DNA from: an uncultured Gammaproteobacteria bacterium
GTDB taxonomy: Bacteria; Pseudomonadota; Gammaproteobacteria; Steroidobacterales; Foliamicaceae
DNA: 64,000 nucleotides
Assembly: GCA_951828235.1 (NCBI GenBank)
Contig: OX639965.1
Coordinates: 2,970,129 to 3,034,128, forward strand
Direction of reading: 5' to 3'
A program made the position numbers and the translations under genes. Below the pieces are notes generated by a model, which was given only the letters and a program-made list of their open reading frames with translations, was not told the DNA's origin and did not search any database. Positions 32,817 through 61,844 of this stretch are shown piece by piece (position 1 is the first letter of the stretch; each line of letters starts with the position of its first letter).

Positions 32817-32936
32817 AGGAACTCCCCCAATGCCCGCGCTTCCGACATACTTTAACCTGCCCCCCTCCCCCGGGAAAGATGGCGTACCGCCCTCCAAAGG
32901 CAATCCCATTCGAAACCATCATGCTATCGTCGCGGT

Positions 32937-46580: not shown

Positions 46581-47966
46581 TCAACCGCGGTCGGAGCGCC
46601 GGGCCTGTGCGACCGACACCCCCAGCACGAGCGCAAAAGTGGCGGCCACGGCCGGTATCTGCAGGCTGAAGTCAACGAGCGCGTGTGCGCCCACCAGGGT
46701 GCAGGCTGCGATGCCCACGGCAGGAAGCACTGCGTCGCGGCGCCCCCTCCCCCGGACGCCCAGCGCGCAGCCCAGGGCCAGCACCATGATCGAGAACACG
46801 AACAGAACGGCTGCGGGAATGCCGAGTTCCAGCGCCAGCTCCAGGTAGTCGTTGTGCGCCATGTTCACGCCGGGTCTGATCTCCTCGCTGCGGTGACTTC
46901 GATATACCGGCCCGAACGTGCCAAGTCCGGTGCCGAGCAGGGGGGACTCCTCGATGGCGCTCAGTGTCTGGGCGTATATCTCAGAGCGCCTTTGCCAGTC
47001 GGTGCCGGTATCCAATACCCGCCGCTCCAGGCCCTCCCCGATCAGCAGAAACAAGGCTGCGCCGGCCAACGCCGGCCCGATCGAACTCAATACTATTTTA
47101 CGCAATCGAACGCCCCGCCCTAAGGCCAGCACCCAGAAGAAGACCAGCAGCGACAGGGCCGTTGCCGCCGCGCCCGCGCGCGAGAGGCTCAGCAGCAACG
47201 CGCCGGCCAGCACCAGCCACATTGCGAGAAACAAGGCGTTGCGGGGCATGAATTCCGCGAAAAGATAATTCAGCCGCAGCCTGAGACCGGCCGCGCCCGG
47301 AGCCCCGCGCTCGAATCGGTACCGGAGCACGGCCGTGGCGCACAACAGGCCTATCCCGGCGTAAGTCGCGAAAGAGTTCGGGTTCACGAACGTGGCGGTC
47401 ACTGCATCGTGATACACCGTCTTTTCGAACCACAGGGTGCGTTTGAGGCCCAAGAACGATACGCCCAGGCCGTAGAGCGCATAGCAGGCCGAGCCTGCGG
47501 CCAGGGCGCGCAAGGCGTACCGGGCGCGCCCCGAATCGCTGCCGTACTGCAACGCCAGCCAGAATATCCCCGCGTACGACAAGACGCGCAGGATGCTCTC
47601 CCGGCTTGCCGAAGGATCCAGCGATATCGCTCCGCGGTATGGCATGCCCAGCGCCTGGGCGGCGTCCCGCCACACGGGGTGATGCCAGCCCTCCGGCATG
47701 AACCCCGCGGTCTGAAGCGCCGCCCACAGCATGGCCAGCGCCAGCGCCGACGCCGACCACCACACGAAGGGCGCCGGCGGTACCGCTGCCGCGCGCACGG
47801 TGAGCGTCGACACGGCTCGGCAAATGACCAGCGCGCCGCAGATGGCAGCCATGCTCGCCCATGCCCAGTCGGCGTAAGCCCCCAAGGGCAACGGAGCGGC
47901 CAGCGTCAGCGCAACAAGCGCATGAAACACCGGCGCGCGACGCTCGCCGGCGGGCGCTTCCCTCAT
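46581..47966 (-). CDS. O-antigen ligase / Wzy_C-family membrane protein
   Basis: Start at MREAPAGERR (ATG 47966, ATGA overlap with the upstream stop). Polytopic, with NMAHNDYLELALELGIPAA in the large periplasmic loop. Confidence 0.75.
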   Translation of the reverse strand: MREAPAGERRAPVFHALVALTLAAPLPLGAYADWAWASMAAICGALVICRAVSTLTVRAAAVPPAPFVWWSASALALAMLWAALQTAGFMPEGWHHPVWRDAAQALGMPYRGAISLDPSASRESILRVLSYAGIFWLALQYGSDSGRARYALRALAAGSACYALYGLGVSFLGLKRTLWFEKTVYHDAVTATFVNPNSFATYAGIGLLCATAVLRYRFERGAPGAAGLRLRLNYLFAEFMPRNALFLAMWLVLAGALLLSLSRAGAAATALSLLVFFWVLALGRGVRLRKIVLSSIGPALAGAALFLLIGEGLERRVLDTGTDWQRRSEIYAQTLSAIEESPLLGTGLGTFGPVYRSHRSEEIRPGVNMAHNDYLELALELGIPAAVLFVFSIMVLALGCALGVRGRGRRDAVLPAVGIAACTLVGAHALVDFSLQIPAVAATFALVLGVSVAQARRSDRG

Positions 47967-48700
47967 GTGGACAGGAATCGCCTCGCCGTGCCCTCCAGAA
48001 CGAGGCAGGTCAGGCGGCCGGTGACGTAGGCGCCGGTGTCGATGCCGATCCGGTTGCGAGCGACGACGGGCTCGGGAGCAAACGCATGGCCATGGACGAT
48101 GATCTTGCCGTGATTGCCGGGGTCCTCCATGAACCCGTCCACGCCCCATAGCAGATCCTCTTCCCGTTGCGCCGCCAGCGGCGTTCCGGGCCGCACGCCT
48201 GCATGCACGAACGCGTAGCCCCCTTCGACGTGCAGCGTCGCAAGCCCGTTCAGGAAGTCCCTGTGGGCGTCGGGCAGCGCCTCGGCGAACGACACCCTCA
48301 CCGCCTCCAGGCAATCGGCGTTGCGCGGCCCGGGCGGCAGCGATACCCCGTAGCTGAGCAAGGTACCCTGGCCCCCCGCGGCCAGCCACTGCCGGGCGAC
48401 CCCGGCGTCATCGAGAAACGCGAGCACCCAAGCCTCATGATTGCCCTTGAGGAACACCGTCTCGAATCCCGGCGCGGGATCGCCCAGCAGGAACTCGATC
48501 ACCTCGCGCGACTGCAGGCCGCGGTCGACATAGTCGCCCAGGAAGACCAGCACGCGCCGCTCAGCGCGCGAGGTATCTCGGCGAACCATTGCCACCAGTC
48601 TGGCCAGCGGCCCGAGTTCGCCGTGAATATCGCCGATGGCGTAGACGCAAGTATCGTGCGGAACGGAGTATGTCTTTCGCGTCGACATCGGGGCGTTCAC
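47963..48700 (-). CDS. PPP-family metallophosphoesterase (Ser/Thr protein phosphatase, PrpA/ApaH-like)
   Basis: 245 aa. GDIHG, GDYVDRG, GNHE, then HGH near the C-terminus. Confidence 0.85.
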   Translation of the reverse strand: MNAPMSTRKTYSVPHDTCVYAIGDIHGELGPLARLVAMVRRDTSRAERRVLVFLGDYVDRGLQSREVIEFLLGDPAPGFETVFLKGNHEAWVLAFLDDAGVARQWLAAGGQGTLLSYGVSLPPGPRNADCLEAVRVSFAEALPDAHRDFLNGLATLHVEGGYAFVHAGVRPGTPLAAQREEDLLWGVDGFMEDPGNHGKIIVHGHAFAPEPVVARNRIGIDTGAYVTGRLTCLVLEGTARRFLST

Positions 48701-49484
48701 GGTCCGCCGCTCAGGGATTGCAGTCTTCGCCGCGCGGGTTTTCCCCGAACTGCGTTCGATATCGCGATCGAAGCGACCTCGCCGCCTGCGCCGCCGATGC
48801 GCGCAGTTTCTGCCATCCCCCGTCGAGATACCAGGTCAGCATCAGCGAGTTTCTCGGCGACTCCCCCCCCCGGAATCCGGTCCACCCCGTGCCAGCTGCT
48901 CGGCGTGACCCCGAACGCATACCCGGTATTTGGCAAGAATGGCAGCCTCACGAGCCTCTCCAGTTCTCCGACACCGTTGCGGCGGTACAAGGAGGTACCC
49001 AAATGGATTTGGCTCAGGTCCGCTGGCAGATAGAACTGCACCGTGATGAGCTTTGGGGGATGTCCTGATGCGGTCGGATGCGGTAGCCGGGCAGATCGCG
49101 CAAAAGTGAGATGCGCAAGTTGGTCCTTGCATCCGCAGGGATGGATCTGCTGGCGATAGAGGCGGCAAGTTTCTTCGCAAAGGCATGCTTCACCAGCGGA
49201 TGCCGCAAAGCGTCCGCGACCGCCTTCCAGAAACGGCGACGGGTTCCCTCCAGCGTCCGCAGACTCTCCTCTGTCAACGGGAACTCGAGCCGAGCGCAGC
49301 TTCCGTCCGCCAAAATCGCATCTTTGTGGCGCAGTTCGGCGTAATGGGTGGCGCGCGGCAGTAGACCGATCAGTTGCCTGTAGCTTTCCTCCGCAAAGAG
49401 GCGCTTCAACACGACGTAGTTGAATGGGCGGGGATTCAGAGGCGCGGCTTGGATGGCCTGCACGATTCGCTCGGTTTCAATCAT
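48697..49484 (-). pseudogene. 2OG-Fe(II) oxygenase-like gene split by a frameshift at a G5/C5 run
   Basis: ORFs 49484-49014 (..GYRIRPHQDIPQ..) and 49041-48697 (..QFYLPAD...SWHGV..) together give the HxD...H pattern. Reading one extra C at 49055-49059 would produce ..HQDIPPKLITVQFYLPAD.. in a single frame. Confidence 0.6.
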
Positions 49485-49707: not shown

Positions 49708-49926
49708 ATGAAACACCGCACCAGCGAACCGAAGCACTCTCCCGCGCGCCCGGCGGGAGACGCCGTGGCGCCGCACAACTCACCCCCGCCCCCGAATTTC
49801 AAACCAAGCTGGGCACGTCCGACAATCCGGGTCCTGCCGGTAGTCACGCACACGGCGTCCGGTACGCAGCCGTACACGGGCCCCAATCTCGAGGATCAAT
49901 CAGGGCACTACGTGACCACCTCCTGA
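49708..49926 (+). CDS. Candidate lasso-type precursor peptide P (72 aa)
   Basis: AAGGA lies 6 nt upstream of the ATG. MKHRTSEPKHSPARPAGDAVAPHNSPPPPNFKPSWARPTIRVLPVVTHTASGTQPYTGPNLEDQSGHYVTTS carries the shared leader motif WxRPx(V/I)R and the TxSG junction, with a C-terminal Ser. 177 nt upstream of the PqqD-like gene. Confidence 0.65.
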   Translation: MKHRTSEPKHSPARPAGDAVAPHNSPPPPNFKPSWARPTIRVLPVVTHTASGTQPYTGPNLEDQSGHYVTTS

Positions 49927-50102
49927 TGCTCCTCCGCGGCGCCGGCTCTAACGCGCGTACGTTAACGAGACATTCAACGGCTGCTCAAGCCAGCAGTATT
50001 TGCGCGCCGGCCCGCAAGAATCGGTCCGCTGCGCTTTCGCATATCCCGCTGGCTTAAAATGACGCCCGAAGGCACAACCGCCCACAACGAGGTAGCATCG
50101 GC

Positions 50103-50384
50103 ATGCAGGTTGAACCGGAAATGCGCGTCGCGCGCAACGACGACATCATCTTCACCGCACTCGACGATACGGTAGTCATGATGGACGTCGACAAAGGACG
50201 CTACTACGAACTCGACCCAACGGCCGCCTCCGTCTGGGCGTTGCTGGAGCGCGAATCCCTTGTGGCCAGCCTGTGCGACGCCTTGCTGGAGCGCTACGAC
50301 GTCTCCGCGGAAACCTGCCGCCGCGACTTACAGGCGTTTCTGGGCGAGCTCGCCGACCTCGGCGTCGTGCAAATCCGGGCGTGA
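50103..50384 (+). CDS. PqqD-family RiPP recognition element protein (lasso B1)
   Basis: 93 aa. ...DDTVVMMDVDKGRYYELDPTAASVWALLERESLVASLCDALLERYDVSAETCRRDLQAFLGELADLGVV is a typical PqqD/RRE winged-helix pattern. Confidence 0.85.
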   Translation: MQVEPEMRVARNDDIIFTALDDTVVMMDVDKGRYYELDPTAASVWALLERESLVASLCDALLERYDVSAETCRRDLQAFLGELADLGVVQIRA

Positions 50385-50449
50385 ACACGACACGTAGGAG
50401 GTAAAGATGAATGAGGCCGGGACCCACCGCCTCACGCAAGGATGTGAAT

Positions 50450-51271
50450 CTATGCGCCGGGCACCAGGAATTCGTATCCGAAATACTCGAAGTTGTCCCG
50501 GTGGCGCCGGAACACGCGGTTGAAGGTGTCAATCTCGGCAGCGCCGAGGCGCCCGATCTGGCGATCGTTCATGTTGGTGAGCATTTCGTTGTACCGACCC
50601 TCCTTCACCCATAGGCGCTGGCGCAGTACAAGGTCGTCGAGTTCCGGCGCCAACGCGCGGATTTTCTCTTCTACCCTTGCCGGTTCATCGCACATCTCCT
50701 CGTAGGTGAAGAACACCCCGCGTTCGCCGTGGCGCTCCAGGTTGCGGCGCTGATAGGAGAAACAGTTCGATACGTGCGTCGCCGCCAACGTGGGCAGGTC
50801 CTCGCGGTTCCCCAGGGAAGAGCCCCGCAGATTGCGGCAGATGCCCTCGCACACCGCGTACGGGTTGCGCACCATGAACAGGAACTTCGCGTTGGGAAAG
50901 TGCCGGACCAGCTCGCCGACGTAGAGCAGAAAGGGCGGGGCCTTCGTATAAAAGACCGACGCCCGGGAGTTGCGCGCGAATGCCTGGAAATACCACGCCT
51001 TGCGCGTGCGCGGCCAATCGTAGGCGCCGGGGTCGGTCAGCCGGGCAAGCCAGTCCGGCTGCGCGCTCCAGATGAGGGGGACTCTCCCCCGATTGACCGG
51101 CCCGACAAAGCCGAGCATCCTCTGACCTTCGTGCACAAGGTTCCAGGTCCCCCGGCACGTCGCCAGCGCTTCCTTGAGGAAGCTCGAACCGCTGTTGTTC
51201 GCCGCGATGCCGAATAGGTGCGTCCCCACGGCGCCCTCGACATCATGCTGGGCTCCGTATATCCGGCTCAT
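50450..51271 (-). CDS. Sulfotransferase-family protein
   Basis: Start at MSRIYGAQ (ATG 51271, 4-nt overlap with the GT8 stop). PAPS 5'-phosphosulfate-binding-like loop IAANNSGSSFL, later FMVRNPYA (3'-PB-like). Confidence 0.7.
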   Translation of the reverse strand: MSRIYGAQHDVEGAVGTHLFGIAANNSGSSFLKEALATCRGTWNLVHEGQRMLGFVGPVNRGRVPLIWSAQPDWLARLTDPGAYDWPRTRKAWYFQAFARNSRASVFYTKAPPFLLYVGELVRHFPNAKFLFMVRNPYAVCEGICRNLRGSSLGNREDLPTLAATHVSNCFSYQRRNLERHGERGVFFTYEEMCDEPARVEEKIRALAPELDDLVLRQRLWVKEGRYNEMLTNMNDRQIGRLGAAEIDTFNRVFRRHRDNFEYFGYEFLVPGA

Positions 51272-52218
51272 TCGGCTTCCCCCGGTTGCGGCGCCGCCCC
51301 TCCCGCGCCCCTTCCGGCCACCCGCGCCACGGCCCGCAGGTGGCCGCTGGCCAGACACTCCAGCCACGCCTCGTACCACAGCCCGAAAAAACGACTCGGA
51401 GGGAAACGCCCGTCTCCCATCAATTGCCACATCATCCGGTCCGGCATCCAGGGCTTGACCGCACCGGTGAAGTGCAGCACCTTCGCCTCTTCCGCACGAA
51501 TACCCTCGCGCGCCCGGATGGCGTCGACGAGGTGCGTTCGATAGTTGTAGGTTGAGCTGACCAGCGTCTGCTGGCCGGCGAAGCGCCGGTTCAGGAGAAA
51601 CTGATCGGAGTGCACCGTATCGGCGCCATGCCACGACTCCGTCGTCACCAGCTCCGCCAGTTCCGAGTACGCGCGTTCGCCCGTCAAGCGCCCGTCGATG
51701 AGCAGCACACCGCAGCTGAAAGTCCGTTCGAGCGCGCCTCCGGGACCGGCGCGCGACGGACTCTCGATTGGCCGATACGTGTCCGCATCGTGGCACCAAC
51801 CCCTCATGAACTCGGTGTCTCCGCAGCACAGCAACGACTCAGCGGAGTCGAAAAGCTCGTCGACCGGCCCGCGAAACAGGAGGTCGCAGTCACAGTAGAA
51901 AACTTTCCGGAAGCCCTCCATCCGGAAAGCCTCGAGGGAATAGAAATCCGGCAGCTTCGAGCGCATGGCCGGACGGGCCTCGCCGAGGCGGATGAGCCGC
52001 TGCTCAAGGGCGGCGCCCACCCGCTCGAAACGCAGCGGCGGAAACGCCGATTCGAGCGATTCGCGCAGTTGCCCGGGCAATCCATCATGGCAGAACACGA
52101 TGTCCCCGCCGAATCGCGGATGCTGTTTCAGGAAGGAGCCGATGCTAACAACGGCTCCCGGCAGGAAATTCTCCGTTGCCGCGAAAACGAGGCAGACATC
52201 ACTCCATCGTGCGCTCAT
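51268..52218 (-). CDS. Glycosyltransferase family 8-like (retaining GT-A)
   Basis: Start at MSARWSDVCLVFAATENF (ATG 52218, 4-nt overlap with the upstream stop). FYCDCDLLF (DxD), GVLLIDG, VLHFTGAVKPW. Confidence 0.75.
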   Translation of the reverse strand: MSARWSDVCLVFAATENFLPGAVVSIGSFLKQHPRFGGDIVFCHDGLPGQLRESLESAFPPLRFERVGAALEQRLIRLGEARPAMRSKLPDFYSLEAFRMEGFRKVFYCDCDLLFRGPVDELFDSAESLLCCGDTEFMRGWCHDADTYRPIESPSRAGPGGALERTFSCGVLLIDGRLTGERAYSELAELVTTESWHGADTVHSDQFLLNRRFAGQQTLVSSTYNYRTHLVDAIRAREGIRAEEAKVLHFTGAVKPWMPDRMMWQLMGDGRFPPSRFFGLWYEAWLECLASGHLRAVARVAGRGAGGAAPQPGEAE

Positions 52219-54158
52219 CGCGAATTCCCCCCTGCGTTGCGCCCGGCCGATCCATCCGCAAGAAACGCTTTCGCCTCGCCGAGGTAGCCGAAGCGTTCCA
52301 TGATCGGACCGTTCGCATCGATGACCGCCCGTACCTGATCCCGCGTAAGCTCGTCGCGCCATGCCCCCGCCCCGCCCGACCGGAAGAACAGGCGCGCCGT
52401 CGGCGGCTTCTCGAAGAACCCGGAACGCTTCTCCTGGGCGCGCAGGCGCTCGAAGCGGGCGCGCTCCACCGCCCGCGAAAGGCGCCCTGCCTCCGGCTCA
52501 AGGCCCGCAAAACGCAGCACCTCCTCAAAGGCGGCCGCCGGGTTCGCCAGCAGATTCTCGTAACGGGCAACGTGAACCGGCAGCTCCCCCTGGTCCAGCC
52601 AGCTCGCTACGTGGCCGCTCCAGGTGAGCAGGGGCTGCGGGAGCACATGGTGGATGCCCCCGACCGGCTGCGACAGAGCGGCGTCGGGACGACATAGTTC
52701 CGCCACGCTACGGGCGATGGACCAGTTCCAGAAGTGCGCGTTGGAAACCGCCACGTCGAGCGGGTTGCGAACGAGGTAAACCGCCCCGCAGGTCACGGAC
52801 GAAGGGAAGAGAAGGCTCCCGCCCGCGGTGCGCAGGCAGGCGTCGTGGACCTTGACGAAGGTTGGGCGCCGCAACTCGGCGGCCAGCAGTTCGTGAAGCC
52901 GCGGCCGCGCTCGCAGGATCTCGTCCGCGGTCAGGTCGGATGAGGGCAGCCCCAGCTGATCGTCGAAAACCTCGCGCTGTTGGAAGTCAAGCCTGCCCAC
53001 GAGCGCGTCGATGGAAGCCGGTCCGTCGCCGTCCTCCAGGTAGTTTGTCAGCAGCGCCCGCAGCCAGGTGTTGCCGGACCGGGGATAGGAAGCAAGCCAG
53101 ACGATGGGCCCTGCATTCCCCTCACGCAAGGCAACATGCTCCGCAACCTTCAGCCGCGGGCGGCTCTTGCCCGTCCGCCACGGCGATGCGTTCGCACCAT
53201 CGATGAGCCTTGGCCACCCGTCGCGCAGACAAGCTTCGACCTCGTCCGCCAGCGCATAGATAGGGCTGCGCCACACGGGTTGCACCAACCGGGCGACCGG
53301 CGCCCGACCCACCAGCGCCACGAGCGCCCGAAACTGGGCGCGCCCCTGTCCGAGCCCGTGCGCGTACCGCTTGCGGTAGATTCGCCCGAGCAGTTGCTCG
53401 AACGCCGCGCCGCGCGAAGGCGCATCGATCCTGAAGCCGTCCTTGTTGTGGTGCATGAGCGTGAAGACTCCGCGCACCGTGATCGGCGCCTCCCGGAAAC
53501 GCGGGGCGGGCGCCAGGTACTTCTCCATTCCTTCCCGCACCCGCCCCTGCACCCGGCTATTCCATCCCAGCGACTCCACCGCATCGGCCCACAGCCGAAG
53601 CCGTGGGTAGGCGGGCAGGGCCACGGGATGACCGCCTCCGTTCGGCACGATGCCCACCACGTCGTCGCAGAGCATCTCGTGCCCGCGGTCGAGCAGCGCC
53701 GCGAGCAGCGTGGATTTGCCGCTCCCGGAGTGGCCCGCAAACAGTACCGCGCCGGAGTCGGTGGCGATCGCACTCGCGTGCAGGGTGAGGACGCCGCGCT
53801 GCTTCAGGCACGCGGCCAGCACCGATCCGAGCAGGAAGGCGCTTACCGATGCGTCCCCGTCCCGGGCGGGTTGGACCGTGATCTCCCGCCCATCGCGGAC
53901 CAGGTAGCGGGCCACCGCGTCCACCACCATCAGGAAAACCCCGGGCGCAGCCTCCCAGGCACCGCGCCGCACCCGGGGTTTGGGCAGCGTATCCGGCACC
54001 GCGCCAATGCGGATGTCCACCTCCGTATCTGCCGTCGGGGAGGCGAGAGGAAGAGGAAGAGGAATCTCGGAGCGTATGACGAGCCCGTAGGCCGCGTAGT
54101 GGCGGGCGCCATGATCCATGGCGCTTTCCAGCGCCCGCACATTGTCCAGCCCGGTCAA
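52215..54158 (-). CDS. Fusion protein: HPr-kinase-like (HprK C-terminal domain-related) kinase plus C-terminal sulfotransferase domain
   Basis: 647 aa. N-terminal half has LHASAIATDSGAVLFAGHSGSGKSTLLAALLDRGHEMLCDDVV (HprK-like P-loop). C-terminal half has LASYPRSGNTWLRALL (sulfotransferase 5'-PSB) and YLVRNPLDVAVS (3'-PB). Confidence 0.8.
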   Translation of the reverse strand: MTGLDNVRALESAMDHGARHYAAYGLVIRSEIPLPLPLASPTADTEVDIRIGAVPDTLPKPRVRRGAWEAAPGVFLMVVDAVARYLVRDGREITVQPARDGDASVSAFLLGSVLAACLKQRGVLTLHASAIATDSGAVLFAGHSGSGKSTLLAALLDRGHEMLCDDVVGIVPNGGGHPVALPAYPRLRLWADAVESLGWNSRVQGRVREGMEKYLAPAPRFREAPITVRGVFTLMHHNKDGFRIDAPSRGAAFEQLLGRIYRKRYAHGLGQGRAQFRALVALVGRAPVARLVQPVWRSPIYALADEVEACLRDGWPRLIDGANASPWRTGKSRPRLKVAEHVALREGNAGPIVWLASYPRSGNTWLRALLTNYLEDGDGPASIDALVGRLDFQQREVFDDQLGLPSSDLTADEILRARPRLHELLAAELRRPTFVKVHDACLRTAGGSLLFPSSVTCGAVYLVRNPLDVAVSNAHFWNWSIARSVAELCRPDAALSQPVGGIHHVLPQPLLTWSGHVASWLDQGELPVHVARYENLLANPAAAFEEVLRFAGLEPEAGRLSRAVERARFERLRAQEKRSGFFEKPPTARLFFRSGGAGAWRDELTRDQVRAVIDANGPIMERFGYLGEAKAFLADGSAGRNAGGNSR

Positions 54159-54182
54159 GAGTCAGGCAGATGCCAAGGGCTA

Positions 54183-54374
54183 TCAGAAGAAAGGAAAATA
54201 GGTCGGGACGTGGTGCTCACCGCTTGGGTTCACATTTGAATCGCCACTTTCGGTGTGCTGCATTCCCATGATCCGAACGGCGGGACGGGTCCAGTGTGAT
54301 TTGCGCTGGATCGAGCGTCGTGGCGAGTTGTCAGCATACCCCCTCCCCCGCGTTTTCAGAGGAATGCGCTGCAT
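54183..54374 (-). CDS. Candidate lasso-type precursor peptide A (63 aa)
   Basis: MQRIPLKTRGRGYADNSPRRSIQRKSHWTRPAVRIMGMQHTESGDSNVNPSGEHHVPTYFPFF. Its stop lies 25 nt upstream of, and co-oriented with, the kinase-sulfotransferase gene. Shares the leader motif. In a hand alignment with the 59482 copy, 8 of 17 substitutions fall at codon position 3. Confidence 0.55.
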   Translation of the reverse strand: MQRIPLKTRGRGYADNSPRRSIQRKSHWTRPAVRIMGMQHTESGDSNVNPSGEHHVPTYFPFF

Positions 54375-54394
54375 CCGAAAACGGCACGGCCTTT

Positions 54395-55171
54395 ATGCTC
54401 GGTCGATTGTCAGACATTTCATTCACCTTGTTCCAGCAGGAAGACGCACCGTGCCAATACTACCACTCTCGCGGCTTTTCCGGCGCGGACCGCAATGCTA
54501 CACTCCGGCGCGTGGAGACGCACGAAGGACGTTCCGCTGCCCCGCCGGCGGCCGAACCCAGCGGGATCGCCCGCGTCCGGAAGCCGACCCGATTTCGTGC
54601 CCTCGGTTCGGTTGACGTGCAGGCGTTGCGGCGCCAGGTCGGGCGCCTCTCGGAGCGGGTCTGGAGGCAGGAAGACGCGATAAAGGAGAACGCCTATCGC
54701 TGCTTTGACCATACTCAGCACATCGTTTTTCGGTTCATCGAGGGCAACCGCGACCCGCGGCGGTTCTACTCGCAGCCGAGCTGGGCAGTCTGGAGTCCGA
54801 TGCTGCTCGCGGTAATGGAGCCGGCCGCGGCGCCGTACCGGTTTCAGGAGCCAGCCTTCCCCAAGGTGATGCTTGCCCGGCTCAAGCCGGGTCACGTGAT
54901 CGAACGGCACGACGATGGCGAGACCGACTGCTCGCACCCGTTCGTGCACAAAATCCATGTGCCGCTGGAGACGAATCTCGGAGCCCTGGTGCACGTGGAC
55001 GGCGAAGACCTCCACCTGGAGGTGGGACAGGCATGGGAGATCAATAACCTCGCGCGGCACGGAGCCGTGAACCGGGGACGAACGGATCGCATCCACCTTG
55101 TTTTCGAGGTCTTCGAAGGGGCGCAGGTGACGATGCCGGAAGATCGTCAACGCACAGCCGCCCGCACTTGA
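54395..55171 (+). CDS. Aspartyl/asparaginyl beta-hydroxylase-family (cupin) protein
   Basis: The ORF is open from GTG 54296; ATG 54395 is the conservative start. LARLKPGHVIERHDD...HKIHVPLETN...EVGQAWEINNLARHGAVN matches the Asp_Arg_Hydrox pattern. Confidence 0.75.
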   Translation: MLGRLSDISFTLFQQEDAPCQYYHSRGFSGADRNATLRRVETHEGRSAAPPAAEPSGIARVRKPTRFRALGSVDVQALRRQVGRLSERVWRQEDAIKENAYRCFDHTQHIVFRFIEGNRDPRRFYSQPSWAVWSPMLLAVMEPAAAPYRFQEPAFPKVMLARLKPGHVIERHDDGETDCSHPFVHKIHVPLETNLGALVHVDGEDLHLEVGQAWEINNLARHGAVNRGRTDRIHLVFEVFEGAQVTMPEDRQRTAART

Positions 55172-55241
55172 CGGACCGCCCGATGCCGCCCGCAGGCACG
55201 GCTGGCGTCCGATTTCGGCATCCGCAGGACACAAACACACC

Positions 55242-57089
55242 ATGAGCACGATCTGCGGCATCCAGGATCCTTCCGTCGCCGCCGCCCCCCAACTGGACGG
55301 CATGCTGGACGCACTGCCGGGCCGGGAGACCGACGCGCGCGCCGCGTGGGCGGGGACCTCGGCGGTCCTCGGCTGGCGGGGCCGGCCCGATGTCGGGGCC
55401 GGCGAGGCGCAGGGCGTGCCCCACTTCGACGCCGAGAGCGGACTGACGATCACCGCAAGCGTGCGCCTCGACGGGCGGAACACGCTGTGCGAGGCACTCG
55501 GCGTGCCCGGCGCGCAGCGGCACACGATCGCCGACAGCGTGCTCGTCCTCAAGGCCTACCAGCACTGGGGCCTGGAGTGTCCTCGGCATCTGCTTGGCGA
55601 CTTCGCGTTCGCGCTGTGGGATGAAAAGCGCCGGAGGCTGTTCTGCGCACGCGACCATGTGGGCGCGCGCGCCTTTTGCTATGCGTTCGCGGGGGAGCGC
55701 TTCATTTTCGCGAGCGACATCGACACGGTATTGGCCGCGCCCGGGGTCTGCGAGGAATTCGACGAGACCGTGGTCGCGACCCGCCTGACATACGGCGCCC
55801 GTCCCCTTGGGGACCGCACCTGCTACCGGTCCATCCGCCGGCTGCTCCCCGGTCATGCTCTCGTCGTCGAGCGCGGCGCGCGGCGCTTCAAGCGCTGGTG
55901 GCGTCCCGAGGAGTTGCCTGAAGTCCGGAACGCCTCCGACGACGCCATAGCGGAGGAGTGCCTGGCGATTCTGAGCGAAGCGGTGCGGGACCGCCTGCGG
56001 GGACGCAGGCCCGTTGGCGTGCACCTGAGCGGAGGCCTGGACTCGTCCAGCATCGCCGTCCTCGCGGCTCGCGAACTCGCGCGCCAGGGGAGCGCGCCCC
56101 CGGTCGCCTTCGGTTGGCATCCGCCGCCCGGCCGCGGGCCGCGGGACGCCGCGGCGGACGCCGAGTACGGACCCATCGAGGCGGTGTGCCGTCAGGAGGG
56201 CATCAACATCGTCTACCAATCTCCGCAGGCCCGCGACGTGGTCGATTTCCTGCGCCGCGACGGCACCCGCCGCGCGGACGAGGGCTCGCTGATCCACGAA
56301 CAGATCGTGCAGCGGGCCGCGGCCGCGCGGGGCGTCGGCCTGCTCCTGTCCGGGTGGGGAGGCGACGAAGGCATCTCCTTCAACGGCCGGGGCTACTACC
56401 CGCTGCTGCTGCGAACCGGCCGGCTGGGCAAGCTGTGGCGGGAACTGCGGGAGTGCAGCTCCCGCCCTCTCGCCATGCTTCTGGAGCACGCGGCGCTGCC
56501 GCTGCTCGCTCCCGGCGCGGCGCGCGCGTCAAGGCGGTTGCGCCTTGGAGAGTCGGCCTTGCGGAAAAACATCACGTTCATTCACCCGGAATTTGCGCGT
56601 CGGGCCACGCTGCTGCCCGCAAAATCCCGGCCCTCTCCGGGAGGGCGGGGCGAGCAACTGCATGTGCTCCAGCTCGGCCACCTGAGCCGGCGCATGGAGG
56701 GGTGGGCCGCCAGCGGCGCAAGCCTCGGGCTTGAGTACGCCTATCCCCTGCTGGACCGGCGGGTGCTGGAATTCGCCCTCGGCCTGCCGCCGGATCAGTA
56801 CCGGCGCGGACGCTGGAGCCGTTGGCTGATACGTCACGCGCTCGGCTCGGTCCTTCCGCCCGCGGTTCGGTGGAACCGGCAAAAACGAGATCCCGCGCGC
56901 TACGAGCCGGCACTCGACGCCCTCGCGGAGGCGCTGCCGGTGGTGCGCGGGATGATCGCGGAACGACCGCCGCCACGGGGCCGCTACCTGGACCTGCCGC
57001 GCCTGTTGGAGCAGATGGAACCGAAACGCTGGCGCGACGGCGGAAGGTATGGGCCGGTCCTGAACGCCTTGCGTTTCCTGGATTTTTAA
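55242..57089 (+). CDS. Asparagine synthetase-like lasso peptide cyclase (lasso C)
   Basis: 615 aa. N-terminal MSTICGI (Ntn-type Cys), PP-loop HLSGGLDSSSIA, and AsnB-like architecture, next to RRE/B2/ABC genes. Confidence 0.9.
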   Translation: MSTICGIQDPSVAAAPQLDGMLDALPGRETDARAAWAGTSAVLGWRGRPDVGAGEAQGVPHFDAESGLTITASVRLDGRNTLCEALGVPGAQRHTIADSVLVLKAYQHWGLECPRHLLGDFAFALWDEKRRRLFCARDHVGARAFCYAFAGERFIFASDIDTVLAAPGVCEEFDETVVATRLTYGARPLGDRTCYRSIRRLLPGHALVVERGARRFKRWWRPEELPEVRNASDDAIAEECLAILSEAVRDRLRGRRPVGVHLSGGLDSSSIAVLAARELARQGSAPPVAFGWHPPPGRGPRDAAADAEYGPIEAVCRQEGINIVYQSPQARDVVDFLRRDGTRRADEGSLIHEQIVQRAAAARGVGLLLSGWGGDEGISFNGRGYYPLLLRTGRLGKLWRELRECSSRPLAMLLEHAALPLLAPGAARASRRLRLGESALRKNITFIHPEFARRATLLPAKSRPSPGGRGEQLHVLQLGHLSRRMEGWAASGASLGLEYAYPLLDRRVLEFALGLPPDQYRRGRWSRWLIRHALGSVLPPAVRWNRQKRDPARYEPALDALAEALPVVRGMIAERPPPRGRYLDLPRLLEQMEPKRWRDGGRYGPVLNALRFLDF

Positions 57090-57178
57090 TCTTGTATGAC
57101 CGCTGCTGCCCTTGCCTCAAGCCTCTTGTATACTTCCCTTGGACCGACGGTAGTTGCAGCAAGTCAGAGGCGATTGGA

Positions 57179-57403
57179 ATGAACGACACTCCACATAACG
57201 CAGGGAAGGCGGTGCCTTCCGGTACTGCGAAGTACCCCAGATTGGGGGGGCAAGACTCACCCGGCCGTAAAGAGCACCGAGGCGACAGGCTACCGTGGTC
57301 TCGCCCCGCGGTGCGCGTAATGACAGGAGTCCGATCAACCAAGAGCGGACCAGAGGCTAACAATCCATCTGTGGAGAACGAATTTTATCGACCAACATCT
57401 TGA
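57179..57403 (+). CDS. Candidate lasso-type precursor peptide C (74 aa)
   Basis: AGAGG lies 8 nt upstream of the ATG. MNDTPHNAGKAVPSGTAKYPRLGGQDSPGRKEHRGDRLPWSRPAVRVMTGVRSTKSGPEANNPSVENEFYRPTS. Lies between the cyclase and the ABC exporter. Has the leader motif, the TKSG junction and a C-terminal Ser. Confidence 0.7.
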   Translation: MNDTPHNAGKAVPSGTAKYPRLGGQDSPGRKEHRGDRLPWSRPAVRVMTGVRSTKSGPEANNPSVENEFYRPTS

Positions 57404-57655
57404 CCCTGCACAGACGACATAAGCACATAACACGGCAGAACAGGCTCTCTTGAACGCGCGCCATCGTCCAGGGCATTGCTATAGGGCGTGATTCAATTCT
57501 CCCTGTTCGCCTCGGCATTGCCATCGCGCCAGCGCATTGTTACGGTAGCCGCAGGTTCCCTGCCTGATTTCCGCGAGGCAATTGACACCGATTCAGATTT
57601 TGCCTGCCTCCGCGCCGGTGTCACGCACCACTGAAACCCGGACCCGGCTGGCGCC

Positions 57656-59491
57656 ATGACGGCGCAACCCACGCCCCAGAACCCCACAATGCCCCGCTCG
57701 GCCGAAGGCGCGTTTCGCGGCGCCGGCGCCCTCGTCGCCGAACTGCTCGCCCGAGCGCCCGGCCTTTCCGCGCTTGCGCTCGCGCTGCTCCTGACCGCGG
57801 CCGTGACAGAGGCGTTCGGCCTTGCGTTGATCGTTCCCCTGCTGTACGTCACGGGTCTTGCCGAATCCTCCGGCAACCGTCCCCCCGTAGTGGACGCCGT
57901 CGCCGCCGCCGCCGAACGCATCGGCCTGGAACTCACGCTGCCGTCGGTTCTCGCCATCTTTCTGGCGCTGGCTGCCGTGCGTGTCGCCGCCGCATGGCAG
58001 CGGCAGCAGGTCCTGGCCCGCCTCGCGCACGGATTCGAGGACCGGCTTCGCGGCGATCTATACGCCGCGACGGCTTCGGCGAAGTGGTCCCACCTGATCC
58101 GCTGGCGCCGCTCCGACATCCACCATGCGCTGACTCGGGAAATTCGCCGCGCCGGGAGCAGCGTCAACCTGCTCTGTCAGCTCGCCGCAGGCTCAGTGCT
58201 TGCACTGGCCCAGTTTGCCGTCGCCGTCGCGATCGACCCGCTGGTCTCGCTCGGCGCGTTGGTCGCCGGCGCCGCACTGGCGTTCCTGACGGTCCCGCTG
58301 GCTTCGCGCTCCTCGCGCCGCGGCACGCAGTTGACGCGGCGCAACGAGGCGCTGCACGCCCTGGTGTCGGACTTCCTGGCCGGTCTCAGGCTCGTCAAGA
58401 GCCACAACGCCGAAGGGCGCCACCTCGGGGACTTCACGGCCGCGGCGCGCGCGACCCGGCAAAGCGAGCTGGCGTCCCGGGCCACGCTCGCCGCCGCGCG
58501 CGCCGTCATGGACCTGGGCGCGGCATGTACGCTGGCCGCCCTGGCCTACGCGGCGATCATCTTTTCCGGCCTGGCTCTGCCCGAACTGCTCGTTCTGGTG
58601 CTGGTCTTCGCCCGCCTGATACCGTCCCTCTCGCGCCTGCAGCAGTTCGCCCAGCAGCTGGCCCAGCAATTGCCGGCCTACGCGCACGCCACCGGCATGA
58701 TCCGCCGGTTGCGCCGGGGCGCCGAGCCGATCCCGAAGGAAAGCCGCTTCCCGCTGCGCCTGCGCGACGCCCTGAACGTGTCCGGCCTTTCGTTCGCTTA
58801 CCCATCCTCGCCCGAAACCCCGGTCCTGACGGACGTGAACCTGTGCGTTCCGACCGGCCGATTCGTCGCCGTCATGGGTCCGTCGGGCGTCGGCAAAAGC
58901 ACGTTCGCAGACCTTCTTTTCGGCCTCCTGGAGCCCTGCCGCGGCGAGATCGCGATCGACGGCGCGCCGTTGACGCCTGCCAACGCGCGGCGCTGGCGCG
59001 ATTCGGCCGCCTACGTCCCCCAGGAGCCCTACCTGTTTCACGAATCCATCCGCGCCAACATGCTCAGAGCCAACCCGAAGGCTTCCGGCGCCGAACTTGA
59101 ACGGTCGCTCTCCCTCGCCGACGCCCGCCGCTTCGTCGATGCCCTGCCCCGGGGACTCGACACGGTGGTCGGTGATCGCGGCGCCCGCCTTTCGAGCGGC
59201 GAGCGCCAGCGCATCGCGATCGCTCAGGCGTTGCTCCGGAACCCGGCGCTGCTACTGCTCGACGAACCCACCGCAAATCTGGACGCCGCCTCGGAGCGCC
59301 GGATCGTGGCGACGCTGGCCTCCCTGTGCCCACGCGTCACGGTCGTGACCATGACCCACCGGCCGGAGCCCGCCAAGCACGCGGACAACATCGTCCTGCT
59401 ACGATCCGGCCGCGTTGCCGCCACCGGACGCTGGAGTGAACTCGAAGCCGCGCTCGAGGGTCCGCTAGATGCCAAGGGCGATCAGGAGTAA
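57656..59491 (+). CDS. ABC transporter, fused permease/ATPase (lasso D-type exporter)
   Basis: 611 aa. 6 TM helices, then Walker A GPSGVGKST, signature LSSGERQRIAIA, Walker B LLLLDEP. Confidence 0.9.
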   Translation: MTAQPTPQNPTMPRSAEGAFRGAGALVAELLARAPGLSALALALLLTAAVTEAFGLALIVPLLYVTGLAESSGNRPPVVDAVAAAAERIGLELTLPSVLAIFLALAAVRVAAAWQRQQVLARLAHGFEDRLRGDLYAATASAKWSHLIRWRRSDIHHALTREIRRAGSSVNLLCQLAAGSVLALAQFAVAVAIDPLVSLGALVAGAALAFLTVPLASRSSRRGTQLTRRNEALHALVSDFLAGLRLVKSHNAEGRHLGDFTAAARATRQSELASRATLAAARAVMDLGAACTLAALAYAAIIFSGLALPELLVLVLVFARLIPSLSRLQQFAQQLAQQLPAYAHATGMIRRLRRGAEPIPKESRFPLRLRDALNVSGLSFAYPSSPETPVLTDVNLCVPTGRFVAVMGPSGVGKSTFADLLFGLLEPCRGEIAIDGAPLTPANARRWRDSAAYVPQEPYLFHESIRANMLRANPKASGAELERSLSLADARRFVDALPRGLDTVVGDRGARLSSGERQRIAIAQALLRNPALLLLDEPTANLDAASERRIVATLASLCPRVTVVTMTHRPEPAKHADNIVLLRSGRVAATGRWSELEAALEGPLDAKGDQE

Positions 59492-59637
59492 GGAAAATAG
59501 GTGGGGACGTGGTGCTCACCGCTTGGGTTCACGTCCGGATCGCCACTTTCAGTGCGCTCCATTGCCATGACCCGGACCGTGGGGCGAGTCCAGTGTGATT
59601 TGCGCGGGGCTGCGCGTCGTAGCGAGTTGTCAGCAAT
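59482..59637 (-). CDS. Precursor-like coding segment B1 (paralog of peptide A); start codon unresolved
   Basis: ..IADNSLRRAAPRKSHWTRPTVRVMAMERTESGDPDVNPSGEHHVPTYFPYS, stop at 59482. No ATG/GTG/TTG lies between the G14 tract and the leader motif. Only the frame through the G14 tract (TTG 59769) is open. The A-like upstream frame (GTG at about 59686) would need 13 or 16 G. Confidence 0.45.
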   Translation of the reverse strand: MADNSLRRAAPRKSHWTRPTVRVMAMERTESGDPDVNPSGEHHVPTYFPYS

Positions 59638-59834
59638 CCCCCCCCCCCCCCAATTTCCAGGGAATGCGCTGGTGGATGCGCCACACCGAAGGACACCGTA
59701 AAGAGCACCCAGGCGACAGGCTACCGTGGTCCCGCCCCGCCGTGCGTTTTTTGGAAGGAGTCCGATCAACCGCGACCGGACCAGAATTCTATAGGGTAGA
59801 GAATACGCCTCACTATGGACCTACTGCGTCTTAG
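59595..59834 (+). CDS. Candidate lasso-type precursor peptide B2 (79 aa from GTG 59595; alternative ATG 59664 or 59676)
   Basis: MICAGLRVVASCQQSPPPPNFQGMRWWMRHTEGHRKEHPGDRLPWSRPAVRFLEGVRSTATGPEFYRVENTPHYGPTAS. Shares GRKEHxGDRLPWSRPAVR with peptide C and SPPPPNF with peptide P. Gly-to-Glu spacing of 8 and a C-terminal Ser. Confidence 0.6.
   Translation: MICAGLRVVASCQQSPPPPNFQGMRWWMRHTEGHRKEHPGDRLPWSRPAVRFLEGVRSTATGPEFYRVENTPHYGPTAS
59638..59651. repeat. Homopolymer C14 (G14 on the minus strand)
   Basis: Read directly: ...cagcaat cccccccccccccc aatttcc. Lies in the overlap of the 5' regions of the divergent ORFs B1(-) and B2(+). Confidence 0.95.
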
Positions 59835-59871: not shown

Positions 59872-61188
59872 TCATGGGCGTACTGGGCATTTCGGCTTCT
59901 CTTTCGCATCCCCCGCAACCTGCAGACGTCCCGTACCGCCCCGGCGCGTTGTAGCTTGGCCGGAGCGTTTCCTGTTGCGCTCCAGCCTGCTGGCCAGCCA
60001 CAGGATCGGGCGCAGCGGCAGGTAGAGGAAGAACAGCCGATCAGGCAAATCCACCCTCCCCAAATCGTACGGCGCTACGCAAAGCCGGGCCAACTCGTGC
60101 GCCGCGCTGCGCCAGGACGGGTTCATCGCCTGACCGAGCCACAATTCGTCCATCCGTCGATCGAGGCCCTCAAGCCCTTTGCCGCCGTGCGGCCGGTTCC
60201 AGAGACGGCGAGTCGAGCGCATTGCGCGGCCGGCCCAGGCGCCCGGCGGCGGAAAAGCCGCAGGCGGGTCCACATGGAACATTTCCGAACACAGGAGAAG
60301 AGCCGCTCCGAACGCGGGCTCCAGCCGCAGTCCCTCGCGCCTGCACCGCTCGACGGCCGCAACGAGGTGGTCCTCGTCCATGGAAGCGAGCAGCGCAGCC
60401 ATGTCGCAAAGCCACTTCAGCCGGCTCCAGCGATGAAGCTGGCCGTGGATGGCCAGGTAGACCATCAGGTCGCCGTCGCCCAGGGAGGCGAAGGCTTGGC
60501 CGCCGATCTCGACGCTGACCGTGCTGGCGCTCAGCGTTTCAAAGGACGCGCGCAACAGGAACGGGTTGTTGACCAGGCGATGGTGCAGTTCCAGCTTGCC
60601 GTGGGGGCCGATAAAGAGGCGGTCCTTGACAAACCGGTCGTAGTGGCGGATGCGGGCCGGAGTCGGGTGAAATGACGGCTTGACAAGGCGCCAGCCACCC
60701 GACGCCAGAGCTTGGGCAGCCTCCGCGGCCTGCTCCCGCGGGACCAGCAGGTCAATGTCGATACAGTCCCTTGCAAGCGGCGTGCCGAACAACCGCATGC
60801 TCAGCGGCAGGCCCTTGAGCACCAGCGACGGAATACCGCTTGCGGCCAGACGATCCGTAGCCTCACGCAGGTCCGCGAGCTGCCGCAACCCTCGTCTCAT
60901 CCTGTGCTGTCGGAAGGGCTCCAGTGCAGCTTGCGCGTCGGGACTCGGGTCCGCGACGGCGCTCACGCCGCGGAGCAACAGCGAACCGACCCGGTGGCGC
61001 CTGGCGAGAGCGGCTACGGCGTTCCAGTCGGCGACGCCGTCGAGCGCCGCGGTATCCGCCTCCCGTGTGCCGACGCCCATGCCAAGGCGCAGCCCGGCAA
61101 GAAGGCCCGCGAACGGCGGCGTTCGAGCGCTGCGTGCGTTCCGCCGCTGCGCCGCCGCCGATGTTCCCATCAGGCCTTTCGGCATCAT
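59872..61188 (-). CDS. Uncharacterised nucleotidyltransferase-family protein (PF14907-like)
   Basis: 438 aa. ...LVLKGLPLSMRLFGTPLARDCIDIDLLVP... (GS/DxD nucleotidyltransferase-fold motif). 4-nt overlap with the upstream B2 gene. Confidence 0.7.
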   Translation of the reverse strand: MMPKGLMGTSAAAQRRNARSARTPPFAGLLAGLRLGMGVGTREADTAALDGVADWNAVAALARRHRVGSLLLRGVSAVADPSPDAQAALEPFRQHRMRRGLRQLADLREATDRLAASGIPSLVLKGLPLSMRLFGTPLARDCIDIDLLVPREQAAEAAQALASGGWRLVKPSFHPTPARIRHYDRFVKDRLFIGPHGKLELHHRLVNNPFLLRASFETLSASTVSVEIGGQAFASLGDGDLMVYLAIHGQLHRWSRLKWLCDMAALLASMDEDHLVAAVERCRREGLRLEPAFGAALLLCSEMFHVDPPAAFPPPGAWAGRAMRSTRRLWNRPHGGKGLEGLDRRMDELWLGQAMNPSWRSAAHELARLCVAPYDLGRVDLPDRLFFLYLPLRPILWLASRLERNRKRSGQATTRRGGTGRLQVAGDAKEKPKCPVRP

Positions 61189-61844
61189 GGCGATCTGGTC
61201 GACGAACGTCCCGGTTCGTCACCGTTGGGATACAGTGGCGACAGTGGAACGTAGGTGTCAAGTTCCCCGCCCCCGATGACGCACTGCCCGGCGACCATCA
61301 GCCAGGCGTGGTACTCGAGAGTCCGCTCCGGCGTTCGGCCTCGCCGCGCGCCGAAGACAAGACGGCTCGGGATACTCCGCCGGCGCAGCATCCATTGCGC
61401 CGCCATGGCCTGCGGCAGACAAAGCGCCTGGAACGGCAGGCGGCGGGCCACCTTGCGGACGACGCGCGCCATCTTTCGGGGGATACGCAGTCTCGCTGCC
61501 GCGCGCCGCTCTTCGTCGGCGCGTTCAGCCGGCCGCTCATCCGCGCCCGGGAGCATAGTGGAGCGCCGTTGCCTGGGCGATTCGGCGCGTTCGGGACAGG
61601 GCGAAGACTCCGGCACCATATCAAGACGACGGCGCCAGAACCGCATCGGCACATGCGCGACAAGCAGTCGCGCCAGCAGCAGGGTGAACGCCGCTTCCAG
61701 CGCCAGCGCCTGCGTTGCGGCCGGCAGGCGCAGAAAACTGCGAAGTCCGTTGACGGACGACGAAGCCCCGCGCTTTGCTGCGGCAAGCCGGCCCGCCCGC
61801 CGTCCCTGTTTCTTCATTTCGTCCTCGCCCACCACCTGCGCCAA
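61185..61844 (-). CDS. Lasso peptide biosynthesis B2 protein (transglutaminase-like cysteine protease, PF13471-like)
   Basis: 219 aa. ...LPFQALCLPQAMAAQWMLRRRSIPSRLVFGARRG....LEYHAWLMVAGQCVIGG gives the Cys...His pattern and the overall signature of leader peptidases of split-B lasso clusters. Confidence 0.85.
   Translation of the reverse strand: MAQVVGEDEMKKQGRRAGRLAAAKRGASSSVNGLRSFLRLPAATQALALEAAFTLLLARLLVAHVPMRFWRRRLDMVPESSPCPERAESPRQRRSTMLPGADERPAERADEERRAAARLRIPRKMARVVRKVARRLPFQALCLPQAMAAQWMLRRRSIPSRLVFGARRGRTPERTLEYHAWLMVAGQCVIGGGELDTYVPLSPLYPNGDEPGRSSTRSP

Follow-up and report, generated by a model that had tools for sequence, protein, structure and literature searches.

The lasso-peptide cluster and its precursor genes

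The window analysed here is a 64,000-nucleotide (nt) stretch of DNA from an uncultured Gammaproteobacteria bacterium (contig OX639965.1, positions 2,970,129 to 3,034,128 of the forward strand). A complete lasso-peptide cluster spans 49.7–61.9 kb of this window. All five of the small open reading frames (ORFs) considered here, termed P, A, C, B1 and B2, lie within it; to judge from their sequences, they are very likely genuine precursor genes, belonging to a heavily tailored lasso-peptide system. Lasso peptides are a major class of RiPPs, peptides that ribosomes synthesize and that are modified after translation, and are mined for antibiotics and engineering scaffolds. The window is compared below with six sibling strains, namely L001 and five assemblies found by exact look-up of the P sequence, which are 98.7–99.2% identical to it and together with it make up seven strains.

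The precursor genes, and the tract that separates two of them, are as follows (SD, Shine-Dalgarno sequence; aa, amino acids):

49708–49926, + strand: precursor P, 72 aa, with SD and ATG, N-terminal extension, interrupted C tract, leader WARPTIRVL, T-A-S-G, core and C-terminal Ser
54183–54417, − strand: precursor A, with leader and core at 54183–54338, tract at 54339–54349, and SD, ATG and extension at 54352–54417
57179–57403, + strand: precursor C, 74 aa, with SD and ATG, an extension beginning MND, G7 tract, leader WSRPAVRVM, T-K-S-G and core, all in frame
59482–59637, − strand: precursor B1, a paralogue of A, leader and core only, with no credible in-frame start
59638–59651: homopolymer tract, C14 as read on the + strand and G14 in the direction of B1, which separates the divergent B1 and B2 genes and lies 12 nt upstream of the B2 ATG
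59664–59834, + strand: precursor B2, 56 aa from ATG 59664, with a leader in common with C and a different core

The other genes of the cluster are these (RRE, RiPP recognition element; limits marked with a dagger, †, come from sibling gene calls):

50103–50384, + strand: PqqD-family RRE (lasso B1 protein), 93 aa, PF05402 at 76 bits
50450–51271†, − strand: sulfotransferase, with a Sulfotransfer_3 Pfam match
51268–52218†, − strand: glycosyltransferase family 8 (GT8) protein, PF01501, E 9e-17
52215–54119, − strand: fusion of an HPr-kinase/ScmC-like P-loop kinase domain with Sulfotransfer_1, PF00685, E 1.6e-21
54395–55171†, + strand: aspartyl/asparaginyl beta-hydroxylase family protein, PF05118, E 4.7e-11
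55242–57089, + strand: lasso cyclase, asparagine-synthetase-like, 615 aa, NF033535 at E 1e-96, with PF00733 and GATase_7
57656–59491, + strand: ABC exporter, 611 aa, PF00005 and PF00664
59872–61188, − strand: nucleotidyltransferase (NTP_transf_5), PF14907, E 1.6e-46
61185–61844, − strand: lasso B2 leader peptidase, transglutaminase-like, NF033537 at 73 bits against a cut-off of 33, with PF13471

The three components by which a lasso cluster is recognized, a cyclase, a transglutaminase-like peptidase and a PqqD RRE, are all present, and the matches to PF05402, PF13471, PF00733 and NF033537 are above their cut-offs. The closest solved relative of the PqqD protein is the lasso RRE TbiB1 (5v1u/5v1v; E 1.9e-10). 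The two marks of a kinase-type lasso cluster are also found, namely a C-terminal Ser on the precursors and an HPr-kinase homologue, the latter through weak, below-cut-off matches (a weak match to PF07475, and matches to TIGR04352/04355 at E 1e-8 to 1e-9).

A shared leader and junction

The five peptides were initially described from the sequence alone as sharing a leader motif and a T-x-(S/T)-G junction, and all five quoted strings are present where they were placed. In its extended form, W-x-R-P-x-[VI]-R-x(6-8)-T-x-[ST]-G, the pattern matches the six-frame translation of the window exactly five times, each time inside the lasso cluster and between 49.7 and 59.9 kb. It has no match in 60 random 64-kb sequences generated by a first-order Markov model with the same dinucleotide transitions. 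The short pattern alone gives 6 matches in the window compared to a random mean of 0.38.

At the DNA level, A and B1 form a repeat (54152–54349 and 59451–59648, 83% over 198 nt). The hand count in the initial annotation is reproduced: their last 39 codons differ at 17 nucleotides (8, 5 and 4 of them at codon positions 3, 1 and 2, respectively), and 5 codons differ only synonymously. The likeness of C and B2 is limited to the leader (57265–57354 and 59696–59785, 87% over 90 nt), and their cores diverge. P was said to show no obvious DNA similarity to the other four, and no DNA repeat linking it to them was found.

Conserved peptide architecture across related loci

More than 1100 homologues of the cyclase were found. 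Nine distinct related loci were fetched (L002, L004, L006–L010, L040 and L041; cyclases 52–75% identical), and L042 was added later. Most of the fetched loci share several accessory genes with the window cluster, and the kinase-sulfotransferase fusion occurs also in L002, L004, L006, L007 and L042. Small ORFs of the same architecture are present in all nine loci and in L042, with 7 in L002, 5 in L004, 4 in L042 and 1 in each of the others. A layout of several precursors on both strands, which had been called unusual for the five here, is normal in this family, as in L002 and L004. In the family pattern, W-x-x-P-x-(V/I/L) is followed by T-x-(S/A/T/G)-(G/A), then by a core that varies, and lastly by an aromatic residue and the C-terminal Ser. 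This pattern adjoins every cyclase homologue examined, despite divergent DNA.

In an alignment of 22 members, the Trp and Pro of the leader are invariant, while the Thr and the late aromatic residue are at least 90% conserved. All 30 family members carry the W-x-x-P-x-(V/I/L) leader, in which Trp replaces Tyr and Val or Ile replaces Leu relative to YxxPxL. The C-terminal Ser is found in 28 of the 30, in 4 of the 5 peptides of the window and in all 5 in the sibling strains; precursor A ends in PFS in all six siblings, and the PFF of the window is the outlier.

In six genes of L006, L041 and L042, a PqqD domain is joined through a low-complexity linker of some 40 aa to a W-motif leader and a core, all in one ORF. 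These PqqD-precursor fusions, of 170–181 aa, are located as follows:

L006: 9154–9675
L041: 6139–6684
L042: 751–1266
L042: 2214–2726
L042: 9388–9933
L042: 16043–16570

These gene fusions are evidence that the RRE and the W-motif leader act together, and binding of one by the other is predicted by analogy with characterised lasso systems. No report of natural RRE-precursor fusions in lasso systems was found in the literature. The original reading of the ORFs as lasso precursors with a leader of the RRE-binding type is supported by the cluster context, the comparison across loci and the PqqD gene fusions.

A further arrangement was observed at L004:18556–19087 (− strand), where a PqqD gene (19087–18779) overlaps a W-motif ORF (18801–18556) by 23 nt in another frame. 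This ORF has no start codon of its own and looks like part of a frameshift-interrupted PqqD-precursor fusion. Two cyclase genes each are found in L002 (1881–3719 and 10001–11848), L040 (109–1980 and 3358–5199) and L042 (2845–4680 and 10001–11839), the last of which additionally holds several of the fusions. The double cyclases suggest sub-clusters that are each dedicated to a different group of precursors.

Database searches recovered few of these peptides. A profile search with all five against 5.8 billion proteins returned P alone, and a scan of genomes with the cyclase returned only one near-identical contig from a metagenome-assembled genome (MAG), that of L001 (98–99% identical), in which the B1/B2 region is a run of N. 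A metagenome scan with the peptide pattern gave 41 matches, none of which was confirmed, and the 21 loci found by a DNA-pattern scan of metagenomes were all unrelated conserved sequences.

Start, tract and leader

In the genes of this family, an SD-like purine run precedes the N-terminal ATG (in 14 of 14 cases), and the ATG opens an N-terminal extension of about 22–25 aa of the form M-(N/S/K)-(D/E)...(D/G)-A-(A/V)-(E/H)-x-S-S-(E/K)-(K/N). Between this extension and the leader lies a G or C homopolymer, from G7 to G14 and sometimes interrupted, with a C run in P and L010. The distance from tract to Trp is usually about 15 residues (range 4 to 23). The C tract of P is interrupted (CCCCCGCCCCCG, 49783–49794) and is read as PPPP. 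The longest tract seen, of the C type as in P, is the C27 at L010:12268–12294, which lies between the start and the leader of the single precursor on a 4.1-Mb contig and is read as a Pro run.

Since the tract is not followed by any conserved start codon, translation must pass through it. Internal initiation after the tract was considered and rejected: besides the lack of a conserved downstream start, the tract of L004-9110 lies 12 nt before the Trp codon with no start between the two. Comparison of the frame of the start with that of the leader divides the 14 tract-bearing genes evenly. Seven are in frame (C and P of the window, L002+1681, L002+12809, L002+14763, L002-3896 and L007) and seven are out of frame (A of the window, L002+9149, L002+12446, L002+12109, L004+15315, L004-9110 and L004-8782). 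The order of start, tract and leader is the same across L002, L004 and L007, with cyclases 62–75% identical, and its C-run form is found in P and in L010 (52%). As in contingency loci, a simple-sequence tract within the 5′ coding region sets the frame by its length, which is 7–14 nt here and 27 nt in L010.

The start codons assumed in the initial annotation for A, B1 and B2 turned out not to be reliable. Of the five genes in the window, three (P, C and B2) are intact and each have an SD and an ATG; A is doubtful, and B1 lacks a credible start. Precursor A retains the conserved SD, ATG and N-terminal extension (MSDNRPSIKAVPFSDAAHSSEN, 54352–54417), followed by an interrupted G run (GGGGGAGGGGG, G5AG5, 54339–54349). 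The start is out of frame with the leader in the window, and a +1 shift would be needed to join them. A is readable in the window solely from ATG 54374, the start first proposed, which lacks an SD and is in frame in the window only and in none of the six siblings. For B1, the window has neither an in-frame ATG nor an SD-preceded start. Its conserved start has been lost because the boundary of the duplication lies about 25–35 nt upstream of the tract; the leader would be in frame with GTG 59708 only at a tract length of 12 or 15, and L037 has 12. The start of B2 is most likely ATG 59664 and not GTG 59595.

B2 is apparently chimeric (59652–59726 compared with P 49783–49830). Its C tract followed by AATTTC resembles the P tract and N-F-K-P-S, and its degenerate W-M-R-H-T resembles the W-A-R-P-T of P, while from CCGTAAAGAGCAC on it is a copy of the C leader. 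The C tract of B2 doubles as the G run of B1 on the opposite strand. Two other G/C-rich runs in the window, at 32861 and 38980, are unrelated to the precursors.

Variation among strains

Frame-disrupting indels had been named at the outset as evidence that would speak against these genes. Such indels are present upstream of the leader in A and B1, at the homopolymer tract, but across the seven strains the leaders and cores of all five genes are free of indels and stops. P is intact and in frame in all seven. In the five siblings in which the region is assembled, the leader and core of B1 are identical and B2 is intact.

Variation is concentrated in the tracts. The B1/B2 tract measures 14 (window), 10, 11, 10, 12 and 14 nt, while about 380 nt of flanking DNA carry 0–3 substitutions; L001 has a scaffold gap at this tract. 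A third tract (48863–48871), in the gene upstream of P, measures 8, 8, 8, 8, 9, 9 and 11 nt in the seven strains. The A tract has three alleles, of 11 nt (G5AG5, window), 12 nt (G5AG4AG, five siblings) and 13 nt (G5AG5AG, L038). In the 12-nt allele, a stop in the leader frame lies two codons upstream of the tract and no start is available. Only the 13-nt allele is in frame with the conserved start, giving a continuous 78-aa ORF, so that A is out of frame from this start in 6 of the 7 strains. The G7 tracts are invariant in length across strains, including that of C (57244–57250) in all seven.

The closest pairs of strains (99.8% identity) differ by 23–34 substitutions in 15.2 kb, yet 2–3 of the 3 long tracts differ between them. 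By this rough comparison, the tracts mutate far faster per site than ordinary bases. Polymorphism in tract length between near-identical strains with conserved flanks is, again, what is seen in contingency loci. In addition, the short out-of-frame G7 and G8 tracts of L004 have equal lengths in a second, independent assembly, L005.

Diversification of the core of C

The extension and leader of C, 57 codons in all, contain one synonymous change among the seven strains, and the tail likewise contains one synonymous change. Core positions 4–10 (codons 59–65, 57353–57373), in contrast, include six variable codons, in which the changes are multi-nucleotide and all non-synonymous. The alleles of this segment are EANNPSV, DELTPAV, DELSPAR, DELAPAQ and DELEPAV, with up to five alleles at one codon, and its flanks, S-G-P and E-N-E-F-Y-R-P-T-S, are invariant. 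Read from the codons, this pattern is the signature of a translated, diversifying peptide, and it points to diversifying selection or gene conversion acting on the core of C.

Cleavage register and ring size

The near-invariant Thr lies 14 or 15 residues after the Trp and is followed by x-(S/T/A/G)-(G/A), which is compatible with Thr at −2 and Ser at position 1 of the core, a putative register at T-x-S-G. Counted from after T-x, the cores start with S-G (T-G in B2), and the acidic residue that would close the ring is at E9 in B2, at E11 in A, B1 and C, and at E12/D13 in P. Shifting the core start by +1 or +2 brings an Asp or Glu to positions 7–9 in 18 or 25 of the 30 family members, respectively, although with the +2 shift the first core residue would be Pro, Asp or Thr. 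In published descriptions, lasso rings have 7–9 residues (PMC10368454), and changes in ring size, even by one residue, are poorly tolerated (PMC13352647). In C, it is exactly the residues between S-G-P and the conserved Glu that are hypervariable. Two readings follow: a cleavage register that varies, or a cyclase whose rings are unusually large and variable. A single cyclase may thus make rings of 9 to 12 residues, more than the 7–9 known. In the family alignment, Asn very often comes next after the conserved acidic residue (VENE, VENT, PENP, LENP, AENA, SENA and LENA), and this might, speculatively, be the target of the Asp/Asn beta-hydroxylase.

Neighbouring genes

The window carries one extra C at 52247 (GGCCGATCC, compared to GGCGATCC in five aligned sibling strains). 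It is located near the 3′ end of the kinase-sulfotransferase gene, where this overlaps the start of the GT8 gene, and it gives the fusion protein different C-terminal residues.

The gene upstream of P (48697–49484, − strand) is split into two ORFs in the window and contains, besides the G tract, a T3/T4 polymorphism at about 49051. A deletion of about 280–294 nt removes its 5′ part in L001 and L036, and L032 has a 2-nt deletion. It has no Pfam match; from H-x-D...H motifs, one guess is that its product resembles a 2-oxoglutarate-dependent oxygenase.

The cluster sits within a locus for polysaccharide synthesis and export, with Wzy_C and Metallophos on its left and Poly_export and a BBP2 porin on its right. 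This setting recurs, with the lasso cluster inside or beside such a locus: polysaccharide genes are located at window positions 46581–48700 and 62059–63998, and also at L002:15629–21848, L040:7913–10029 and L009:1–2662; the families seen in them are Wzy_C, Metallophos, Bac_transf, epimerase, Poly_export and BBP2 porin. These neighbours, together with the GT8, the nucleotidyltransferase and the three sulfotransferase domains, invite the speculation that there is a sulfated glycan on the peptide or linked to it.

Proposed mechanism and alternative explanations

The best overall explanation, and one that can be held with good confidence, is that the five ORFs are the precursor (A) genes of a kinase/sulfotransferase-type lasso cluster and are built from start, tract and leader. 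By analogy with known lasso systems, the leader W-x-R-P-x-(V/I)-R-(V/I/F)-(M/L), a W/V variant of YxxPxL, would dock on the PqqD RRE (50103–50384), and the conserved Thr would be the recognition residue for the B2 peptidase (61185–61844). The cyclase (55242–57089) would then link the new N-terminus to the conserved Glu or Asp through an isopeptide bond, with the conserved aromatic residue as a likely plug. The HPr-kinase-like domain would phosphorylate the C-terminal Ser, which the nucleotidyltransferase, GT8 and sulfotransferases might decorate further with glycosyl and sulfate groups. The hydroxylase would modify some residue of the peptide, and the ABC transporter would export the product.

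Whether the tract serves as a hypermutable switch, in other words as a contingency locus by which single precursors are turned on or off, is an evenly balanced question on the present comparisons. If it is, P, C and B2 would be ON in the window and B1 OFF, while A would be OFF from its conserved start and rescued at best by the ATG that lacks an SD. A more tentative extension, which falls somewhat short of even chances, treats the precursor set as contingency genes in which tract switching and diversification of the ring segment would lead sibling cells to export different subsets and variants of a decorated lasso peptide. The judgement on the switch is one component of the overall judgement, and those on the alternatives below were reached independently and need not add up to certainty.

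Several findings weigh against parts of this explanation. The PqqD RRE scores 60.6 bits against NF033536, below the cut-off of 80, and the cyclase scores 325 bits against NF033535, below the curated cut-off of 525. None of the five precursors matches any NCBIfam precursor model at E ≤ 1, and with the core counted from after T-x, Asp or Glu occupies positions 7–9 only in B2 in the window and in 10 of 30 members family-wide. With regard to the switch, the A tract is interrupted (G5AG5) and would be expected to be weakly mutable, and tract lengths are identical between L002 and L003 and between L004 and L005. Long G/C tracts are also error-prone in Illumina and long-read assemblies, so that variation in length and frame is perhaps partly technical, and assemblies cannot reveal reversibility or heterogeneity of the tracts within a clone.

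Four alternatives account for parts of the same evidence. The tract lengths may be real and non-adaptive, with homopolymers acting as mutational hot spots. The out-of-frame copies, namely A in most strains, B1 and roughly half of those in L002 and L004, would then be decaying duplicates in a birth-and-death family, and the in-frame copies alone would matter. This is unlikely, although it accounts for the missing conserved start of B1, for the interrupted and mostly out-of-frame tract of A, for the patchwork of P-like and C-like pieces in B2 and for the indels that break the neighbouring gene in several strains. Decaying copies would not be expected to stay free of stops and indels in leader and core in every strain, nor would A be expected to regain a perfect ORF in L038. 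The presence of the tract at the same place across divergent loci (L002, L004 and L007, with the C run in P and L010) argues, moreover, that it is maintained. A second account, which is rather improbable, holds that expression is independent of frame, since slippage of RNA polymerase, or of the ribosome by −1 or +1, would give some in-frame product at any tract length. The apparent lack of constraint on frame (7 in, 7 out) is consistent with this, tracts of 10–14 nt exceed the length of the RNA:DNA hybrid, and in A the run of Gly codons would allow the message to re-pair perfectly once a −1 slip has occurred. In endosymbionts, frameshifted genes are known to be rescued by slippage at poly(A) tracts; however, slippage is documented mainly on A/T runs. 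The out-of-frame G7–G8 and interrupted tracts (L004-9110, L004-8782 and A) are short for efficient slippage, and no stimulatory RNA structure was found around the tract, where a CCUCC...GGGGG hairpin can form but fold z-scores are only −0.4 to −1.3.

It is very doubtful that the differences in tract length and frame are artefacts of homopolymer sequencing or assembly and that all precursors are really in frame. The scaffold gap of L001 does coincide exactly with the B1/B2 tract, the contig of L003 breaks off within a G tract, and a single short-read assembly is the source of the long tracts of L002. There are, however, length differences of as much as 4 nt, and two contigs from the same sample, ptg000989l and ptg002920l, whose names suggest long-read assembly, differ at all three tracts. 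The A alleles also involve G4–G5 runs and an extra A, which are not error-prone, and the out-of-frame G7 and G8 tracts recur in an independent sample. Finally, that the small ORFs are untranslated, and that their conserved elements are repeated regulatory DNA or RNA, can scarcely be credited. It is true that gene callers annotate P alone (P0001), also in the sibling contigs, and that an exhaustive hidden Markov model search of 1.84 billion representative proteins found only six true family members. Against this, conservation is at the amino-acid level with divergent DNA, the stop codon directly follows the conserved Ser, the pattern of synonymous and non-synonymous changes fits coding sequence, and the PqqD fusions are continuous ORFs.

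Comparison with known systems

At the level of the cluster, gene content identifies this as a kinase-type lasso system, similar to those of paeninodin and pseudomycoidin. Like the paeninodin type (PadeA/PadeK, ThcoK and SyanK), it combines an HPr-kinase homologue and a precursor C-terminal Ser with a B protein split into B1 (PqqD RRE) and B2, a cyclase and an ABC exporter. In PadeA, the spacing from the aromatic residue to the Thr is 14 residues, as it is here, and the core starts with A-G, which resembles the S-G found here. Unlike the paeninodin type, the present system has Trp for Tyr and Val or Ile for Leu in the leader motif, a kinase fused to a sulfotransferase, an additional sulfotransferase, a GT8 and an Asp/Asn hydroxylase, and five precursors per cluster. 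Nothing there corresponds to the N-terminal extension and the homopolymer tract, the acidic residue here is often beyond position 9, and no NCBIfam precursor model is matched.

In paeninodin-type clusters, the HPr-kinase homologue phosphorylates the C-terminal Ser of the linear precursor, and in pseudomycoidin, from Bacillus pseudomycoides, a kinase and a nucleotidyltransferase add phosphate and hexoses to this Ser (PMC8498205). Both enzyme types are present here, while the pseudomycoidin cluster is from a Firmicute, has a single precursor, and lacks the sulfotransferases, GT8, hydroxylase and tract. Gram-negative kinase-type lasso clusters are represented by BsfA from Bradymonas and by predicted precursors from Acidobacteriaceae and Sphingomonadales, in which YxxPxL lies at a fixed distance from the core (PMC10368454). 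These differ in having Ile or Val at −2, a Gly1–Asp8 ring and Tyr at −17, whereas here the Thr is conserved and the Trp is 15–16 residues before the presumed cleavage site. None of the strings WTRP, WSRP, WARP, RPTVR and RPAVR occurs in the supplements of that paper on Ile(−2) precursors. The caulosegnins I–III offer an example of several precursors served by one enzyme set, with rings of 8 and 9 residues (PMC13352647). Their three precursors are in tandem on one strand and their ring sizes span one residue only, compared to a span from S-G to the acidic residue that differs by 3–4 residues within one cluster here.

Contingency loci are known in Neisseria, Bordetella and M. tuberculosis, where changes in homopolymer length shift the frame (PMC5084427, PMC1891110, PMC10334774). 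The likeness lies in a G/C homopolymer in the 5′ coding region that differs in length between near-identical strains while its flanks are conserved; the known loci differ in that they affect surface structures, restriction systems or metabolic genes of pathogens. No report was found in the literature that links lasso or other RiPP precursors to homopolymer-driven variation. If the tract is indeed a switch, it would be, to our knowledge, the first case of phase variation on RiPP precursor genes and a mechanism for diversifying a secreted peptide at the level of the population.

The family appears to have been overlooked, as the clade is widespread in Gemmatimonadota and Acidobacteriota-type MAGs while hardly any of its precursors are present in protein databases. 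Which copies to express can be read from the list of those in frame and out of frame, and the spacing anomaly, together with the natural RRE-precursor fusions, bears on how the cleavage site and the ring size are set. Compared with the systems above, the new elements are the W/V leader motif, the kinase-sulfotransferase fusion with its rich tailoring set, the many precursors on both strands, the start-tract-leader gene structure with its strain-variable frame, and the spacing of the acidic residue.

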